Shown here: positions 1-21,065 of the stretch, piece by piece | How the letters are laid out: every line of letters starts with the position of its first letter | Numbering within the stretch: position 1 is the first letter of the stretch | From: Candidatus Saccharimonadales bacterium | GTDB taxonomy: Bacteria; Patescibacteriota; Saccharimonadia; Saccharimonadales; UBA4665 | Length of the DNA: 64,000 nt | NCBI GenBank assembly: GCA_035480575.1 | Contig: DATIHR010000022.1 | Location: forward strand, 750-64,749 | Reading direction: 5' to 3' | Notes under the pieces: model-generated | What the model was told of the DNA's origin: nothing | Databases searched by the model: none | The model's input: the letters and a program-made list of their open reading frames with translations, nothing else | Position numbers and translations under genes: made by a program

Positions 1-3000
1 TCATCCGGCACTATCAATAACGATTGGTTTTACTCTAGATGGTCCGGCTATTTCGTAGCCCCAGCAACTGGCACCTACTACTTCGGCGGTAATAACGACG
101 ATTTACTCAAAGTAACTATCAATGGCCAGCAAGTATACATTAACGGTGGATGCTATACGGGCGTCTGCTATGGCTCGAGTATTACGCTGCAAGCTGGACA
201 AGTTGTGCCCATCGACGTACAACACAAAGAAGTAACCGGCCCGGCGTATGCACATCTATACGTTAAGGGGCCTGTGGACGAACAGGTGGTACCGCAAGCC
301 TGGTTACAGACTGGTGTACGGCCAGTATCCAACCAGCATGGTCTAACCGGCAGCTACTACGGCAAGTTCGACGGCACTAATACTTTCTCAAGCGGTAACG
401 CCCTGGTTATGAAGCGCACAGATACATTCCTGAACTTTGATTGGGGTAGCGGAGCGCCGGTAGCTAACGGCCCGGCAGACTTCCTGGTGCGTTGGTCCGG
501 ATACGTAACTGTACCGGTAAGCGGCACCTATAACTTCGGTACTAACAGTGATGATGGTTCCAAGATTACCGTCGGCACCGGCAATACTGTCGTGTACAAC
601 GATTGGACTACGCATGGCCCGACAGAGGGCTATGGTACGGGATATTTCCTAACCGCCAATCAGCCAGTACCCATTACGATTGAGTACTTCGATCAAGGCG
701 GCCCAGCTAGTTTCCAATTCAAAGTCCAGGGTGCTGTATCGCAGCAGATCGTTCCAAGCGATTGGCTGTCGCCAAAAGCCCAAGTATTACCTGACGGTTG
801 GAATCTGGGCATTGATCCAGATGGCGATCTTAACTATGATCACCTGAAAGCTAATCAAAATAGCGTAGTACTGAGCGATTCCACCGGCGATACGCACGAA
901 TATACCTACGTCAATGGCGGCTACAGACCACCAGTGAATGAAGACGGCCAGCTAGTGCGTAATGCTGACGGCACCTTTACTATGCAGGATACCGACGGCC
1001 GTACCTATGTGTTCGCGGCTGATGGCACACTCAGCTCTGTTACGAACCCAGTAGACGACCGCAAGCCAGCTGCTTTGCAGTATACCTACGGCAGTATCAA
1101 TGGCGGCCCGGCTACGCTAACTCAAATTACTGATGCCGTAGACTCCAGCCGTTGGGCAAAAGTGTACTATAGTGGCGATAGTAACTGCGGCAGCGCCCCA
1201 AGCAGCTTTGACACCAATGCACCCGCTGGTATGCTGTGTGCAGTAAAAACCAATGACGGCCGAGCCACCTACTTTTACTACAATACTGGCCAGTTGGCGC
1301 GTGTGGCCGAGCCAGGCAACCAGTACAATGATTACCAGTACGAAGCAGTAACAAATGGCGGTACAACGATTGGCTATCGTATGATAGGTACTCGCGATAG
1401 CTTGGCCAACGATGCTATTGCTGCCGGGGTTCGTTCAAACGATTCTACTGCTAAGACTGAAATGAGCTACGATGTACTTGGCCGTGTTACTAGCATTACG
1501 CAACCTGCAGCTACTGCTGGTGCCAGCCGTATGCAGCACACAGTTGAATATTTACCAGGCCCACTCGACAAGAGCTACGCGGGTGCTTCGCAGCAGCATA
1601 TAGTTGGAGCTACAGAACCAAATGGCTTCACTCATCGCGTGGAATACGACAATCTATTCAGAACTACTAAAGACACTGACATCACCAATCTCAGCACAAT
1701 TACTGAATGGGACGCCCTTAAAGACCTCCAGTACAGTACGACTGACGCCACTGGCCTTAAATCCACTGCGATTTACGATGACGAAGACCGCCCTACCGAC
1801 AGCTACGGCCCGGCACCAGCCAGCTACTACGGCACCGACCGCAAACCAACCAGTACATATGTGAGTCAAGTACCTCGTACCGAAAGCAAATACGACGAAG
1901 GGATAGTCGGCCCCGCTATAGCCTGGTATGACTACACTAAACAAACAGGCAACACTAACGGTACACTCTTTGGCGCTCCAAAGTTGCATACCACAGGCAT
2001 TAATACGGCTACGCCAGGCACGCTTAGCTACGACTTTGTTAGCCCACCTATTACTGCCAGTAGCGGTACGCAGGGCATTGGCCTGAGCGCTACCGGCAAG
2101 TTGCGACTACCTACCGGCACCTACGCCATTAACGCAGATACCAGCGATGGTGTTCGGGTATGGGTAGACGACCAGCTAGTGCTGGACAGTTGGATAGACA
2201 GTGCCTACCGAACTACTACCACCGGCATCGCCTTTACCGTTAGTGACAGCGTACCAAAACGTTTCCGCGCGGATGTATACCGTCGTACCGGATCTACGGG
2301 CACACTCAACCTCAAGATACAGCAGCAAGGTGGCTTTACCGCTACTACCGATTGGAGCAGTTACCTTAAGTCGGACTACTCGTTAGCCACTTCTGCCAAG
2401 ACTTATGACGCTACCCTTGGCGACAACACTACCACGACCAGCTATGGCAGTAACCCAGAGCTGGGTTTGGCCCAAAGCACTAGCCTCGACCCCACCGGCT
2501 TGAATCTAACTTCCACCAGTACCTACGAAACCCAGGGTGCTACCGGCAGCTACTTGCGCCAGCTAACCAAAACGTTGCCCGGCGGCAACACTACCAGCTA
2601 TAGCTACTACGGCGCAACTGAAACCAAGGACAACCCGTGTACTACCGGGACGACAGAGGCTTACAAACAGGCCGGTATGCTCAAGCTGCGTACTGACCCG
2701 GACCCCGACGGAGCAGGTTCCCAGACCCCTCGCACCACCGAAACAATCTACGATGATGCAGGTAAAGTTGTAGCTACACGCATAAATAGCGATTCGTGGA
2801 CGTGTACCACATACGATTCGCGCGAACGTGTAGCAAGTACAACTATCCCTGCTTACAATGGTGCGGCTGCCCGCACTATACAGAACGATTATGCCGTAGG
2901 CGGCAGCCCCCTGGTAGTAACAAGTTGGGACGATCAAGGCTGGATTGTAACTTGGATGGACCTTTTAGGCCGTAGTACTAAATATCGAGATGTACATGAT

Positions 3001-4788
3001 GACGAAACAACCAGCACTTACGACTCACAGGGCCATTTGACACAGCGGGTCAGCCCCCTCGGTACGGAAACATTCACCTACGACAATTTTGATCGGCTCG
3101 TAGACCAGAAGTTAGATACTGTCACCTATGCTCACATAACCTACGATACGTATAGCCGCATAGACAATGTTACCTACCCAGCCGCTGGTCAGCAAAAGGT
3201 CACCATGGCGCGCGACGCCCTGGGACGGCTCAACAGCCTCACCTATACCCTTGGAGACGGAACGACAACAGTTAACGATGTGGTAACACGCACACAGTCG
3301 AACCAAATCACAAGCGACGTCGTAACTTCCGGCTCTAACAGCCTCTGGTATAACTACAGCTATGACACAGCGGGTCGTATAACCGGCGCTACGGCTGGCC
3401 CGCATTCGTACAGCTACGGATACGGCACCGAATCTTCAACATGTAGCTCGGTAGCTGGTAACAATACAAATGCTGGTAAAAACAGCAATCGCACCACGCA
3501 AACAATTGATGGTACGACAACTACCTTCTGCTACGACCAGGCAGACCGTCTCAAGAGCAGCTCGAATGTGCTCTACAACGGTGGCGACTACGACAGTCAC
3601 GGCAACATGACGAGCGTAGGTACTGGTACCACTCCACTCCGTCTTTGCTTTGACAGTTCTGACAGGAATACCTGCATGACCCAACGTGACAGCAACGGTA
3701 CGGGTACAGCCATGTATTACAATCGCGATGTCCAGGGCCGCATTGTGGCAAGGTTCAAGAATACACTCACCAACTGGACAGCCACAGACGCTGGTGACTA
3801 CTGGTACGGCTTCACCGGCAGCGGTGACACTCCTGACTTTGTCCGTGACGCAGCCTGGAATGTTATCGAGAAGAATCTAGAGCTGCCTGGGGGCGTAATA
3901 GTGACCATAAAACCCCAAGAATCATTAGCCGCAAATAAAGCACTCTACTCGCTGCCGAACGTCCATGGCGATGTATTGCTGACAACCAACGCGAATGGTG
4001 TTAATACCTCTGCCGGTAATGGCCCGTTGAACACCTTTACGTATGATCCCTTTGGCCAAGTGTTAAGCGGTTCCGTCCTCCCCGCTAACGCAGACCATGC
4101 CAGCTATGGCTACGTAGGCCAGCACGAGAAGCTTACTGAGAGTGAGTATGCTCTTACACCCATCCAGATGGGATCGAGAGTGTATATACCAGGACTTGGT
4201 AGGTTCTTACAGGTCGACCCCCAAGAAGGTGGTACACCCAATAACTACGTGTACCCGCCAGATCCGATTAATGACTTTGACCTAAGCGGAGAATTCGGAT
4301 GGAAAAGCTTTGCGAGTATCGCGAGTGTTGGTTCGATGATACCCGGGCCCATAGGCATGGCGAGTGCTGCGGTGTCTGCTGCAGCTTATGCTGCTGCGGG
4401 GGATAAGAAACAGGCTCTGATAATGGCTGGCTGTGTCGCTGCGGCGGCAGTTGGGGCTGGTGCGGCGGTACAAGCCTACAAGATTGCCAAAGACGTTAAG
4501 GCGGTTTCTACGGTCGCTAAACTAGGTCAAATGCAGAAGGTCGCGGGGACGTCTGTACATGCAGCTCAGAGGATGCAGCAACGTAGCATCACGTCGACAA
4601 TGATACAAAAGGCGATACAAAAAGGCGTGAGATACAACGACGCTAAACATCTGAATACATACGCTCACGTTTTGCATGGTGGCATGGCATCGGGTAAGAC
4701 GCTGTATGTATCGACAAACAAATTCACCGGTAAGGTAATCACCGCTATAACGCGAAGGGTATTTAAGCCCGGAAAGAGGTGGTTCTAA
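1..4788 (+). CDS. Rhs/YD-repeat polymorphic toxin with PA14 domains, 5'-partial (frame is open from base 1); C-terminal DUF4258/RelE-like tip
   Basis: Frame 1 has no stop from base 1 ([18 protein letters not shown]...). PA14-like blocks (RWSGY...GTYxFG...DDG) at about 1-260, 340-770 and 1915-2330. YD repeats; Rhs core end GRFLQVDP...[10 protein letters not shown] ending at 4290; tip [12 protein letters not shown]. Confidence 0.9.
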
Positions 4789-4789
4789 A

Positions 4790-5020
4790 ATGAAAAGGAG
4801 AGATGAAGTGAAAGTTACTTATGATAAAGAGGCTGACGCAGCCTATATATACCTAGATGATATCAGTCAAGATGAAGTGTCAGAAACCTTCACTTGTGAC
4901 GATCTCCCCCCCACTGTTAAGGGGGATATTAACCTCGACTTTGACTCAAAGGGAATCTTAAGGGGTATTGAGATCCTTGGCGCATCGAAAGTCCTACCCC
5001 AAAATGCTCTCAAAGGTTAG
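4790..5020 (+). CDS. DUF2283-family protein, probable cognate immunity/antitoxin
   Basis: YDKEADAAYIYL...INLDFDSKGILRGIEILGAS motif; starts 1 nt after the toxin stop. Confidence 0.8.
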   Translation: MKRRDEVKVTYDKEADAAYIYLDDISQDEVSETFTCDDLPPTVKGDINLDFDSKGILRGIEILGASKVLPQNALKG

Positions 5021-5023
5021 ATA

Positions 5024-5500
5024 ATGCCAAAGTACAACATAGATTTTGAGGGCCAACCAACAAAAGGTACACTTGTTTATATAGAAGAAGATCATGCCTT
5101 CAACTTTACCGGCTTTGATAAACGGATGAAGACAGCGGCCATCACCATAAACGAAACACTACAAGTTGAATTTTTAGTTGAGACGGGAAAAGTGGTTTAC
5201 GTATGGGGTTATTATCCAAAAGAGTCCTGGGGCAGTGGCAAGGTTGTGCCTCCCCATCACACCAATGGGGAGGTGTATGTTGACGTGGGCGAAGCTCCTG
5301 ATATGGGGGTTGGTTATGAAGAACCTTCTGTTGTCGGCAAGGCGGTGTTTGATCGGGAGAGCGGCTGGTTTCATATTGGTGCCCCTGAATGCTCTACTTG
5401 CATAGAGGTGGCCGACCATACCGTCCTAGGATTCGATGTAGAGAATCATTTAAGGTCAGTATGGCTCCATCCGGACATTCAGGCAAAAGACGCCCTATAG
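5024..5500 (+). CDS. Putative orphan immunity protein
   Basis: 158-aa ORF 3 nt after DUF2283; beta-rich, ends LRSVWLHP; position in the toxin locus. Confidence 0.5.
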   Translation: MPKYNIDFEGQPTKGTLVYIEEDHAFNFTGFDKRMKTAAITINETLQVEFLVETGKVVYVWGYYPKESWGSGKVVPPHHTNGEVYVDVGEAPDMGVGYEEPSVVGKAVFDRESGWFHIGAPECSTCIEVADHTVLGFDVENHLRSVWLHPDIQAKDAL

Positions 5501-5522
5501 CTTAAGGTACATAGAGATCAGT

Positions 5523-5840
5523 ATGACAGTGAACAACAAAAGTTTTTGGGTGTTTGCCTATCGGCATGAGGGTGAATACGTCCCCGAAGAGATTGTGGGT
5601 GCCCCAGAAGATAGGTTTGCAAATCTTGAATACGGGGACGTCAAAGAGGGTTCATATCAGTTGTGGGAATACCCAAGCGGCAAGATATTCAATATAGCAC
5701 CCGATAGAGAGCTTGGTAAAGACGAGGACTATTATGCGACGCCGTATAACAACAAGGGTAGCGTATGGTTGCCGAAACTTGTGGAAGTGGGTGTTGACCA
5801 AGATAGGGTCGCGAAGGCGTATAGCGGCTTGAAGGTCTAG
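5523..5840 (+). CDS. Hypothetical protein, possible orphan immunity
   Basis: 105-aa acidic ORF, co-oriented and tightly packed in the toxin locus. Confidence 0.5.
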   Translation: MTVNNKSFWVFAYRHEGEYVPEEIVGAPEDRFANLEYGDVKEGSYQLWEYPSGKIFNIAPDRELGKDEDYYATPYNNKGSVWLPKLVEVGVDQDRVAKAYSGLKV

Positions 5841-5842
5841 AC

Positions 5843-6415
5843 TTGATGATAGTTACACCCAAACAAGACATTTTTGAGCCAGGAGACTCTAAAAATCCCC
5901 TAAGGATATTCACCAAAGGTAAAGATTATATTGTCTACGCGCTTTACCTAGAGAAAGATATACCAAAATGGTATTGCTTATTGCACGATGAGGATGCAGG
6001 CTATTATCCGATGGCGCATGAGGCAATCAAGTTTAAGGTAGTTGACAATGACACTACTGCTAACTGGGTCTACTCAAAGAAACGCGGCGTATTCCGCAAA
6101 GAGCAAACCTACTCGTATCCAGAATGGGCAAACGATAAAACCTATTATCAATACCTGGTTGGCGACGACCTCCATCCGGCCGAGAGCAAAAAGGCAGCTA
6201 ACGTATTCCAAGATAAAGTGGCACAGTACACCAAAGATTATGCCATCAAAAAGTTTGGTTCGGTCAAAGCGGCGAAAGAACACGTACTGAAGAAGCGCTA
6301 TGAGGATGAATTAAGACTTCATAAAGAGCGCGGCTTTGACCGCCCGGAGAAGCCGGAAGTTACCGATAAAATCCTTGATAGTCTGCCTTTACGCATGGCG
6401 GATATAGCCGACTAA
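5843..6415 (+). CDS. Putative orphan immunity protein
   Basis: 190 aa; Y..YAL...YPMAHEAIKFKVVD...YSYPEWANDKTYYQYLV pattern recalled from toxin-locus immunity genes. Confidence 0.5.
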   Translation: MMIVTPKQDIFEPGDSKNPLRIFTKGKDYIVYALYLEKDIPKWYCLLHDEDAGYYPMAHEAIKFKVVDNDTTANWVYSKKRGVFRKEQTYSYPEWANDKTYYQYLVGDDLHPAESKKAANVFQDKVAQYTKDYAIKKFGSVKAAKEHVLKKRYEDELRLHKERGFDRPEKPEVTDKILDSLPLRMADIAD

Positions 6416-6745
6416 TCTCGATCTAGACACAGCTCCGTTGGCAGCTTTTGTCGTGCCCCGTGTGTTTAACGGTATGTTCAACGAGAGGTTCGCGGAAGCT
6501 CTTATTGTCGATATGACTTTGACGGCTCGGCCTACATAACTCATAATACTGAGCATTAACAACTAGACCCCGATTCTCATCAGGACACTTGCCAGCGAAG
6601 CGAACGCGTAAACATTTCTTAGACGATGAGAACTAGTAAGTAGTGGACACCACCCACGTAAAAAAGGGATGCTTGCGGACGGATCGTAATTGACCAAAGT
6701 CAAATACACCCCCGCTTTATTTGGCTTTGGGCGAGGAGATCGCTC

Positions 6746-6922
6746 ATGGAGCCTCAAGCAGCTGCTTTGCCGCAAGAAGCGCACGAACCGTCATACGATG
6801 ACCCTGATAGCAATCTTGTTGCGTTTATAGACGAACTACAAAAGATAGATTTAAATAGTCCGTTAGCGAAGTTAAATCCAACATCCATCTCAGATAATAA
6901 TGGCGGTAGGATCGCACTATAG
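6746..6922 (+). CDS. Small 58-aa ORF upstream of the recombinase (MEPQAAALPQEAHEPSYDD...)
   Basis: Read manually; GAGGAG Shine-Dalgarno upstream; stop is 6 nt before the recombinase ATG. Confidence 0.45.
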   Translation: MEPQAAALPQEAHEPSYDDPDSNLVAFIDELQKIDLNSPLAKLNPTSISDNNGGRIAL

Positions 6923-6928
6923 TTTTAG

Positions 6929-8506
6929 ATGTTAAAATGGGGCATGCCTCGCAAAGAATCGATAGACATACGCAAACTCCGATACGTGTTGTACGCCCGC
7001 AAATCAACTGAAGATGAAGCGCGTCAGGTGCGTTCAGTCGGTGACCAGATAAAGGACTGCCAGAAGCTGGCAAAAGATCTTGGGCTGAACGTCGTCGAGA
7101 CAATAAAAGAGACCAAATCTGCCAAGCGTCCGGATCAACGACCTCTTTTCTCGAAGATGATTAAAGACATTGAGGCGAAGAAATACGATGCCATCCTTTG
7201 CTGGCACCCTGACAGGTTGTGTCGAAACATGCTTGAGGGTGGCCGCATTATCAATATGTTGGACGAGAACACGTTAAAAGATATTCGTTTCAACAGCCAC
7301 CAATTTAGCAATGATGCAAACGGCAAAATGCTCCTGGGTATGCTTTTTGTTTTCTCGAAGCAATATTCGGACGACCTATCTGATAAAGTAAATCGCGGTA
7401 TAAGCGGTAATCTGGAAGAAGGTAAATCGGCGGGTGCGCCTAAGCTGGGATACACGCGCAGCGAGGTGACTGGCTATTACGAACCTAACGAATTTTTTGG
7501 TGTAATCGAAGAGGCCTGGCGTAGAAGGCTTACCGGCGAGAGCTTAGATGCAATAACTGCCTACTTACATGAACAGAATGTCCATAGGGTGACGAAGAAT
7601 AAGAAGAAACAGCGAATTCTAAGACCAGGCAAAAGTACCGTCGGTTATATGTTCAGCGACCCATTCTACTACGGCATTTTGATACAGGCTAGCCAAACTG
7701 TTGATTTATGCGAGCTTACACCTTTCAAGAAGATCGTCACCAAAGAGATGTACGAACAGGTGCAGGCCCTGGGTTACGGCAGGACAAAAAGTCATGCCGA
7801 CAAGAAACGGACAACGTTTTTCCCGTTGCGTGGTTTTGTATATTGCGGAGTTTGTAATAGCGATAAATACATGAAGGTGGGCAAAAATAAGACTGGCGGC
7901 GGCACGTACGTCCTTACTTACAGGTGTGACAATAAAGAGTGCACGCGTCAGGTGAAGTCTTTTAGAGCCAAGTACATATTTGAATCGATTTATAAAACAC
8001 TGGATAAGTTTGAACTAGGCGATGAGGCTTATGGCCGCTATAGTGCGAAGATTGACGGCCGCACTGATGAGAAGATAGTTGAAATCAAACAAGCCATTCA
8101 CAGTAAGCGTGGAGTCTTGAGCCACATTAAAAGTGAGCTTAGTGAGCGGGCGTTGGCTGTTGGGCGTATGGAAAAGAAGTCGCCAGCATATCAGCCGAAC
8201 ATGGATAAGCTCGAACAGCTTGCCGATCAACAGGCCGATCTTGAAGAAGAAATTCGCAAGCTGGATGAAAAAGTGGCAAATCCGCGCCAAATAAAGGTAG
8301 GCAGGGAAGAGTTTTTGAACCTGGTGAAAACAGCGTCACAACGGATGAAAGCTGGCTCTGCAGTCGAAAAAGACGTACTTTGTCGCATTTTGTTTTTGAA
8401 CCTACGCGTAGATAACGAAAAAGTGGCCTCCTACCTCTGGCGCGAACCGTTCGCGACGTTGGTAAAGGCCACTGAAATCCAGGATGGTGGGGGTGGATGG
8501 ACTTGA
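6929..8506 (+). CDS. Large serine recombinase/integrase
   Basis: YARKSTE catalytic motif, resolvase domain, recombinase domain, Zn ribbon (CGVC...YRCDNKEC) and coiled coil; 525 aa. Confidence 0.92.
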   Translation: MLKWGMPRKESIDIRKLRYVLYARKSTEDEARQVRSVGDQIKDCQKLAKDLGLNVVETIKETKSAKRPDQRPLFSKMIKDIEAKKYDAILCWHPDRLCRNMLEGGRIINMLDENTLKDIRFNSHQFSNDANGKMLLGMLFVFSKQYSDDLSDKVNRGISGNLEEGKSAGAPKLGYTRSEVTGYYEPNEFFGVIEEAWRRRLTGESLDAITAYLHEQNVHRVTKNKKKQRILRPGKSTVGYMFSDPFYYGILIQASQTVDLCELTPFKKIVTKEMYEQVQALGYGRTKSHADKKRTTFFPLRGFVYCGVCNSDKYMKVGKNKTGGGTYVLTYRCDNKECTRQVKSFRAKYIFESIYKTLDKFELGDEAYGRYSAKIDGRTDEKIVEIKQAIHSKRGVLSHIKSELSERALAVGRMEKKSPAYQPNMDKLEQLADQQADLEEEIRKLDEKVANPRQIKVGREEFLNLVKTASQRMKAGSAVEKDVLCRILFLNLRVDNEKVASYLWREPFATLVKATEIQDGGGGWT

Positions 8507-8560
8507 ACCATCGACCAAAGGATTATGAGTCCTCTGCTCTAACCACTGAGCTACACCCCC
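8485..8560 (-). tRNA. tRNA-Ile2 (CAU, lysidine type), CCA encoded
   Basis: GGGGGTGTAGCTCAGTGGTTAGAGCAGAGGACTCATAATCCTTTGGTCGATGGTTCAAGTCCATCCACCCCCACCA. Ile2 assigned by resemblance and by elimination, since fMet and elongator Met are found elsewhere in the window. Confidence 0.85.
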
Positions 8561-8717
8561 GGAGTGCGCAAGTCTGCGCACGAGTATTCGATAGCTCGGA
8601 TTGGCCATGCAGTCCAACCGTTAGCCCGAATACTGTTCGCGTTACACTCGCTTCAAGCAATGTAACAGAGTGAGTATAGCAGATTTGGTCCCTGTTATAT
8701 AATGGTTATACCTACTT

Positions 8718-16304: not shown

Positions 16305-16337
16305 AACAAGGCACCCACTTTCGTGGGTGTTTTGTTT
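16305..16337 (+). terminator. Intrinsic terminator of tRNA-fMet
   Basis: GCACCCAC-TTTC-GTGGGTGT followed by a T-rich tract. Confidence 0.8.
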
Positions 16338-16473
16338 TGGTTTTGAGAGTCGGGCTCAAACCTGCGGTAGCATGTATCACAGACACAGCCTGATATAGTT
16401 AAGCTAATGGCCAATAAAGTGAAAGCCCCGCTTGGTGCAAGTCTTGTAGTATTGTCGTCAATTTTAATATTTT

Positions 16474-20989: not shown

Positions 20990-21022
20990 AGTAAATGCCC
21001 CACCGCAGGTGGGGTTTTTACT
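20990..21022 (+). terminator. Intrinsic terminator of tRNA-Met
   Basis: CCCCACC-GCA-GGTGGGG followed by TTTTT. Confidence 0.85.
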
Positions 21023-21065
21023 TGGTCAGAGGCCAGGTTAGTTTAATAAGTTATAGTATTTTATT

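Follow-up and report, generated by a model that had tools for sequence, protein, structure and literature searches.

A serine integrase gene ends inside tRNA-Ile2

The stretch of DNA analyzed here (the window; 64,000 nucleotides, positions 750-64749 of contig C22 in assembly G000) comes from a Candidatus Saccharimonadales bacterium whose assembly of 1.29 Mb consists of 36 contigs and contains 37 tRNA genes. Our subject is a gene for an integrase (int) of the large serine recombinase (LSR) type that runs into the convergent gene for tRNA-Ile2, together with the integrative element of which this junction very probably forms one end (Table 1). The two genes overlap by 22 nucleotides (8485-8506), and prediction of the open reading frame (ORF), together with ARAGORN and Rfam, bore out the first-pass annotation, which had described a frame ending in GGGGWT, a TGA stop codon in the T-loop of the tRNA and a 22-bp overlap. 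The 525-residue product ends in ...ATEIQDGGGGWT followed by the stop; residues 1-521 are encoded by the element or by the core that it shares with the tRNA, and residues 522-525 (GGWT) and the stop codon are read from the tRNA antisense strand.

Table 1. Features of the int/tRNA-Ile2 locus and of the region to its left (positions in the window)
Feature	Position	Strand	Remarks
Rhs/PA14 toxin gene, 5'-open	1-4788	+	apparent cargo between attL and attR; 5' end lost in assembly gap
DUF2283 protein, partner of Rhs/PA14 toxin	4790-5020	+	apparent cargo
Three further small ORFs	5024-6415	+	cargo
Promoter-like site TTGACG-17-CATAAT	6519-6547	+	ahead of small ORF and int; 10/12, consensus match only
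58-residue acidic protein ending ...LNPTSISDNNGGRIAL	6746-6922	+	conserved companion of int in the clade
Predicted LSR, integrated (short) form, 525 residues	6929-8506	+	ORF, Pfam, PHROG
attR (highly probable)	8455-8514		P arm (last int codons, to 8484), then core, then B' arm
Common core TGGTGGGG	8485-8492		common to attR and attL (C1:4153-4146); antisense of tRNA nucleotides 69-76
tRNA-Ile2, anticodon CAT, lysidine type	8485-8560	-	ARAGORN; Rfam 77 bits
TGA stop codon of int	8504-8506	+	antisense of T55-C56-A57, T-loop

By every sequence feature that could be tested, the product of int is an LSR. Pfam identified Resolvase (PF00239, 8.2e-23, residues 20-166) and Recombinase (PF07508, 1.3e-7) domains, and PHROG gave an integrase match at 1.6e-63. 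A match to Zn_ribbon_recom (PF13408) was weak (0.002; 18.9 bits, below the cut-off of 25.3). Four cysteines (306, 309, 333 and 338) were invariant in the family alignment (A1), as were the catalytic residues R24, S26, D95, R96 and R99. An AlphaFold2 (AF2) model of a 64%-identical long form contained a beta ribbon at 300-342 and helices at 361-446. A zinc ribbon and an inserted coiled coil thus follow the Recombinase domain, as is characteristic of LSRs.

The tRNA is tRNA-Ile2 of the lysidine-dependent kind. There are exactly three CAT tRNAs in the assembly, of which one other carries the initiator C1xA72 mismatch and this one a paired G1-C72. Its best Escherichia coli matches are annotated as tRNA-Ile (85-87% identity), which places it closest to ileX/ileY-type genes, and the genome encodes TilS (177 bits, above the cut-off).

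The length of the overlap follows from the geometry of the two genes. The int frame has a fixed register with TGGT (the antisense of ACCA), and in this frame an A57 in the T-loop yields TGA, which sets the overlap at 22 nucleotides. When the tRNA has G57 in its T-loop, int reads on for at least 58 nucleotides further into the tRNA (L173, L215 and L158). The same geometry raises the idea that convergent transcription may interfere with the essential tRNA-Ile2. A consensus scan found seven terminator-like hairpins on the minus strand within int (7057-8289), and nine on both strands between 6300 and 8800 compared to 2.3 expected from shuffles; the minus-strand hairpins inside int could limit tRNA read-through. 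Finally, a 20-nucleotide inverted repeat (7103-7122 and 8679-8698, 90% complementary) involves the 5' part of int and the region upstream of the tRNA promoter, and may be due to chance.

The detached end of int lies at attL on a second contig

The first-pass annotation had further proposed that the attachment (att) site lies inside the integrase gene and that integration could change its C-terminus, and both proposals held. On another contig of the same genome (C1) we found an attL at position 4153, on the minus strand, where a P'-type arm is joined to the final 45 codons that int lacks (GGAEDTTFELMM...EQVYRY and stop); arm and tail together span C1:4153-4018. The detached tail (C1:4152-4018, minus strand) is in frame with int through the core, and this attL reads ...ggttcaatTGGTGGGGCAGAAGATACAACTTTTGAGC..., then GGAEDTTFELMMADLAEWFMDHPSVSWRQELNEAAGVTHEQVYRY and a stop codon. 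Tail peptides of the two closest relatives at CAT tRNAs match C1:4152-4018 with 60% and 56% identity (E 6e-17 and 1e-13, respectively), the former relative being 68% identical. Joined through the core, int would encode 564 residues in its free form compared to 525 in the integrated form. The two diverge after residue 521, with 43 residues (AEDTTFELMMADLAEWF...EQVYRY) at attL exchanged for GGWT and a stop codon from the tRNA antisense strand.

The B' arm of attR consists of the acceptor 3' strand and T arm of the tRNA, with TTGAAC at 8503-8508, 18 nucleotides after TGGT. The core shared by attL and attR comprises the eight nucleotides TGGTGGGG and nothing more, and tRNA-Ile2 alone among the 37 tRNAs of the genome has this ending. 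The P' arm of the window element reads TTGAGC where nearly all relatives have TTGAAC. No motif symmetric to TTGAAC was recognized in the P or B arms; the B arms are displaced tRNA trailers.

C1 also carries Dus, the conserved left neighbor of tRNA-Ile2, and the host flank beside its attL contains a small hairpin with a T-rich stretch after it, which is what a displaced tRNA terminator would look like. The element can thus be followed from C1:4153 to C1:1, across an assembly gap, and from C22:1 to window position 8492, a distance of at least 13.4 kb. C1 ends in an ORF and C22 starts in the 5'-open Rhs gene; since both contig ends lie inside ORFs, the gap between them is real. No attL pattern occurs within the window itself, attL being on C1, and a spare inverted copy of attP was found neither in the window element nor systematically in its subclade.

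Attachment sites and detached tails across the family

With tblastn, at least 18 integrated loci yielded a detached tail that has the orientation of int and lies 3-7 kb upstream of it. The sequence before each tail, which opens at TGGT(C/G)(G/C), is unrelated host flank, in many cases with a terminator hairpin. A scan that imposed no core match located attL, in the layout seen on C1, in 39 of 55 related integrated loci. Identity between attL and attR was 0.97-1.0 at nucleotides 3-6, 0.15-0.33 at nucleotides 7, 9 and 10, and 0.70 at nucleotide 8. The core shared family-wide is the four nucleotides GT(C/G)(G/C), corresponding to tRNA positions 71-74. The crossover therefore falls within these bases, at the discriminator and the first acceptor pairs. 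Attachment sites of LSRs typically share just a short core around a 2-bp crossover, and the core found here (eight nucleotides in the window element, four family-wide) agrees with this.

The spacing between TGGT and TTGAAC was 23 nucleotides in P' arms compared to 18 nucleotides in the B' arms provided by tRNAs (39 loci and the window element). In the LI integrase and other LSRs, the motif of the zinc-ribbon domain lies 5 bp further inward in attB than in attP half-sites (PMC3783163), and the difference in spacing observed here matches this published shift.

Tails are 44-55 residues long, follow a pattern of the type G-x-x-E/K-x-x-x-F/L-E...I-A-D/E-W-L/F, and end in Y-x-Y/F/L. The ratio of nonsynonymous to synonymous substitution rates (dN/dS) was 0.08-0.40 in 11 pairs of related tails. 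Judged by its pattern of substitution, the detached tail is a real coding segment under purifying selection.

Empty sites and the position of the crossover

Members of the genus share the gene order Dus - tRNA-Ile2 (convergent) - DivIC. The comparison with relatives lacking the element, which the first-pass annotation had put forward, revealed empty sites in two genomes of the same genus (G018, tRNA identical at 76/76 positions; G007, 75/76), each with a terminator hairpin directly after the tRNA and no LSR, so the arrangement is not a fixed one. An LSR was present at tRNA-Ile2 in only three of the 23 genus genomes (G000, G017 and G011). G020 contains a remnant without int (L068:11657), in which a P' arm and an intact 45-residue tail lie 1.4 kb from tRNA-Ile2. 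The tRNAs of occupied sites were identical to the empty-site tRNAs of sister genomes, indicating that the body of the tRNA is host DNA, the shared terminal bases excepted.

These findings bear on a possible crossover in the T-loop, where the stop codon lies. Were this so, as in class-II tyrosine-integrase islands, the element would bring with it the last 22 nucleotides of the tRNA, which would also encode the int C-terminus, and the protein would be unchanged by integration. The exact position of the stop in the T-loop and the natural inverted repeat formed by the T arm agree with such a model, as does a 20/22 direct copy of a tRNA-Leu 3' end that lies 5.3 kb upstream of the tRNA in genome G055. 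However, the actual attL of the G055 element (L115:6385) is 165 nucleotides away from this copy, which lies outside the element; neither the window's own genome nor five other loci contained a displaced tRNA 3' fragment; and identity between attL and attR stops after nucleotides 6-8. A direct repeat of the tRNA 3' end was likewise absent from the window and from the whole assembly. The identity of occupied-site and empty-site tRNAs also argues against an element-borne tRNA end, and we regard this model as very unlikely. It had been suggested by the G055 repeat, and was dropped once the true attL sites had been found. That repeat (L072/L115), a copy of the 3' end of tRNA-Leu(CAG) with B'-type spacing that is situated in the host flank, may be the scar of an earlier occupant. 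From the aligned att sites we place the crossover instead at the CCA/discriminator end (tRNA positions 71-74), leaving the tRNA gene uninterrupted.

Recombinase-tRNA overlap is widespread

Each of the three LSR genes in the genome runs into the 3' end of a convergent tRNA gene and stops there (Ile2, Leu-TAG and Gly-GCC). The second LSR, on contig C8, is 55% identical to that of the window, overlaps tRNA-Leu(TAG) by 22 nucleotides and ends in ...SGARERT. The third (L003, C21:4620-6180) is 22% identical and overlaps tRNA-Gly(GCC) by 12 nucleotides. The element at C8:232-3937 (L221), whose int is without its N-terminal half and adjoins an ORF (C8:1179-2021) that is transposase-like by eye only, still has an attL with an intact 44-residue tail at C8:3937-3805. 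L003 ends in ...DIWCG, its TGA being in the acceptor stem of tRNA-Gly(GCC) and in a different frame relative to TGGT. The 4.6 kb of sequence upstream of L003 that could be examined contained no recognizable attL. For a comparable LSR encoded on a viral contig (L076), a P'-type arm lies as little as 1 kb ahead of int, with TCAAAC 23 nucleotides after TGGT compared to TCTAAC at 18 nucleotides in the tRNA.

In 61 related genomes, close homologues of the window integrase all stop exactly 22 nucleotides inside Ile2/Met-CAT, Leu or Pro tRNAs, and more distant homologues end in other tRNAs with overlaps of 12-99 nucleotides. Integrases 60-69% identical to that of the window were found at Ile2/Met-CAT, Pro or Leu tRNAs. 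Two rows of the survey (L022 and L031) stem from unpublished genomes (G023 and G035), and no claim is based on them. A GTDB-wide scan, in line with the survey of recombinase-tRNA overlap suggested by the first-pass annotation, returned 80 loci, mostly from Saccharibacteria and Microgenomates. Int ended in a convergent tRNA in 65 of these and stopped at the T-loop in 55, with an overlap of 22 nucleotides, or 20 where CCA is not encoded. Among JGI metagenome loci, 38 of 58 had an overlap of 22 nucleotides, this overlap alone being counted. With three of three LSRs in the genome and 65 of 80 GTDB loci ending in convergent tRNAs, the overlap is not due to chance.

Several loci (L124, L126, L138, L141, L145, L148 and others) combine a Patescibacteria-type LSR with a CCA-less tRNA-Pro in records labelled Gammaproteobacteria, Salinisphaerales or Pseudomonadales; mis-binning or mislabelling of contigs from metagenome-assembled genomes is the probable explanation. 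Elsewhere in the window, at 16305-16370 and 20990-21045, a terminator hairpin after tRNA-fMet and tRNA-Met, respectively, is followed by a TGGT... sequence loosely resembling an antisense tRNA 3' end; inspection of the sequence at these two sites revealed neither P'-type spacing nor a tail ORF.

Long forms of int and tandem arrays

In five loci (L083, L087, L156, L161 and L212) the int ORF has no T-loop stop and continues for 44-54 residues through TGGT, 19 nucleotides and T(T/C)GAAC. The long-form genes of L083, L087, L161 and L212 sit at junctions inside tandem arrays, which run attL, element 1, int1, P1/P'2 junction and element 2. A second int follows the junction in L083, L161 and L212, with the tRNA itself visible only in L161, and the contig of L087 ends 1.4 kb past the junction. 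The long-form gene of L156 ends 250 bp before the end of a contig that has no terminal overlap. The arrays fit a second element using attR, composed of the resident P arm and the intact tRNA B' arm, as its target, which is plausible because natural B arms are not conserved. In addition, three long forms from the protein database (P0003, P0004 and P0005), which belong to different subclades, have a near-identical tail (GRVGAINLEQLD...AYEL) on Int bodies that are highly divergent by eye (not quantified), which suggests that tails or modules are exchanged between elements at att junctions.

A probable integrative element with attP inside its own integrase gene

We consider it highly probable that the int/tRNA-Ile2 junction is the attR of an integrative element that is moved by an LSR and has its attP inside its own int gene, 45 codons before the stop. 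Recombination would take place at the last bases of tRNA-Ile2, with the acceptor 3' strand and T arm serving as the B' half-site and TTGAAC of the T-loop as the likely distal (zinc-ribbon-domain) motif, 5 bp nearer to the core than in the P' arm of the element. Integration would leave the tRNA whole, displace its terminator to the far end of the element, and cut int such that the short 525-residue form (...DGGGGWT) is encoded at attR and the last 43 residues remain at attL on C1. Excision would restore the 564-residue enzyme, with a predicted attP circle junction of ...GAAATCCAGGATGGTGGGGCAGAAGATACAAC.... We infer that the element is still mobile.

Alternatively, the overlap might be a fixed and immobile product of compaction in a small genome, with the recombinase domesticated. 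Genomes of this group are small, no free form was seen, and the TTGAAC motif is changed in the P' arm of the window copy. Such an origin is nevertheless difficult to reconcile with the presence of the LSR at tRNA-Ile2 in so few genomes of the genus, with the int-less remnant in G020, with the occurrence of related integrases in many lineages at tRNAs that include Leu, Pro and Ile2/Met, and with the tandem arrays, and we judge it highly improbable.

Several observations nonetheless weigh against a mobile element with an internal attP. One part of the element is on C1 and the other on C22, and its contiguity across the gap rests on synteny and the matching core. Neither an excised circle nor an attP on a free replicon was seen, there was no terminal overlap among the metagenome contigs, a pattern scan of viral contigs gave 0 matches, and all five readable long-form genes are on chromosomal-type contigs. 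An AF2 model of the L083 long form (567 residues, 60-row alignment) was confident for the LSR body and gave the tail, three short helices after a disordered core-encoded linker, a predicted local distance difference test (pLDDT) score of only 45-65. Lastly, the window copy may be decaying, given TTGAGC in its P' arm and its size; elements of relatives measure 2.9-10.4 kb, with a median of 5.4 kb.

Cargo and a companion gene

Because attL is on C1 and the synteny of Dus, tRNA-Ile2 and DivIC is conserved, the genes at window positions 1-6415 lie inside the element. The Rhs/PA14 toxin and its DUF2283 partner appear to be mobile cargo, and the element further encodes a DUF4145/phrog_1305 DNA-binding protein. 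The NGGR motif of the small acidic protein encoded directly ahead of int recurred upstream of int in 42 of 80 loci, in 26 of them at most 120 nucleotides from the int start. Neither this protein nor the int tail had a match in Pfam or PHROG. LSRs integrate by recombining attP with attB, and their excision depends on a directionality factor; we view the NGGR-motif protein as a candidate for such a factor or for a regulator.

Relationship to known integrases

The window integrase resembles LSRs of phages and islands (Listeria A118/LI Int, SPbeta SprA, TP901-1 Int, phiC31 and Bxb1) in its resolvase domain, recombinase domain, zinc ribbon and long coiled-coil insertion, as well as in its short att sites with few shared bases and a distal motif shifted by 5 bp between attP- and attB-type arms. 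Unlike the phage enzymes, to which it is at most 25% identical (the best solved matches being TP901-1 and SPbeta SprA), it belongs to a family whose target is the CCA end of tRNA genes and not a protein-coding gene, whose attP is inside the int frame, giving the enzyme two C-termini, and whose elements, at the median given above, are very small.

An attP inside int has parallels among tyrosine recombinases. The integrases of SSV-type archaeal viruses are tyrosine recombinases with attP inside the int gene, which is partitioned upon integration at a tRNA gene; those systems share a long block of identity with the tRNA and their gene is cut into two large parts, whereas here only a short tail is lost. 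The integrase of myxophage Mx8 is likewise a tyrosine recombinase. In this phage, attP forms part of the coding sequence of int, and upon integration the gene acquires a new 3' end with changed properties (IntP/IntX; PMC6070905). As with Mx8 IntP, integration replaces the 3' end of the window int, the tail at attL being in frame. In contrast to Mx8 Int, the window enzyme has serine-recombinase domains only, with another mechanism and another att anatomy, and is not a member of that family; by analogy, its design can be described as the serine-integrase counterpart of Mx8 IntP/IntX.

The use of tRNA 3' ends and the tandem arrays at tRNA hotspots are shared with tRNA-targeting tyrosine-integrase islands and tycheposons. 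Whereas tyrosine-integrase islands duplicate a 3' segment of the tRNA, only 4-8 nucleotides are shared here and the body of the tRNA is never replaced. Tycheposons and related cryptic elements integrate at tRNA genes. An LSR is carried by 27 of 937 such elements (10.1101/2020.12.28.424599). In the literature searched, no LSR was described as having attP inside its own gene or as targeting the tRNA CCA end; this is not proof that there is none.

A possible role for exchange of the C-terminus

The long form is presumably the integrating enzyme, and the short form, perhaps together with the NGGR-motif protein, would be the prophage or excision form. We tentatively propose, while leaning against it ourselves, that exchange of the tail is a directionality device. 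In this proposal, the 564-residue form, with its conserved helical tail ending in Y-x-Y, would be licensed for recombination of attP with attB; integration would remove the tail, and the 525-residue form would be either stabilized against re-excision or opened to the NGGR-motif protein.

The split may alternatively be real yet neutral. In that case the tail would be kept only for the enzyme of the free form, and the short form, whether a tolerated truncation or an inactive protein, would play no part in directionality. We give this a chance only slightly short of even. Purifying selection on the tail requires only that the long form be used at some stage, and the short ending varies freely with the tRNA (GGWT, RERT or GDRT, and longer read-through where the T-loop offers no TGA). 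On the other hand, an inactive short form would bar excision of integrated single copies, yet the family is widespread and polymorphic, and in the Mx8 precedent activity is altered when the C-terminus changes (PMC6070905).

Insertion of large DNA relies mainly on serine integrases as tools, and how their directionality is controlled is an active structural question. The family described here is a large natural one that uses the ends of tRNA genes as attB, has switched its target tRNA between close relatives, and changes its own C-terminus upon integration. It offers compact integration modules, and it represents a natural experiment on what a tail beside the zinc-ribbon/coiled-coil region does to directionality. 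If exchange of the tail does act as a directionality device, it would constitute a self-contained module of ~3 kb with the conserved CCA/T-arm end of selected tRNA genes as its target. For Patescibacteria, these elements represent a main route by which small islands enter reduced genomes, and the island at tRNA-Ile2 appears to carry an Rhs toxin locus.

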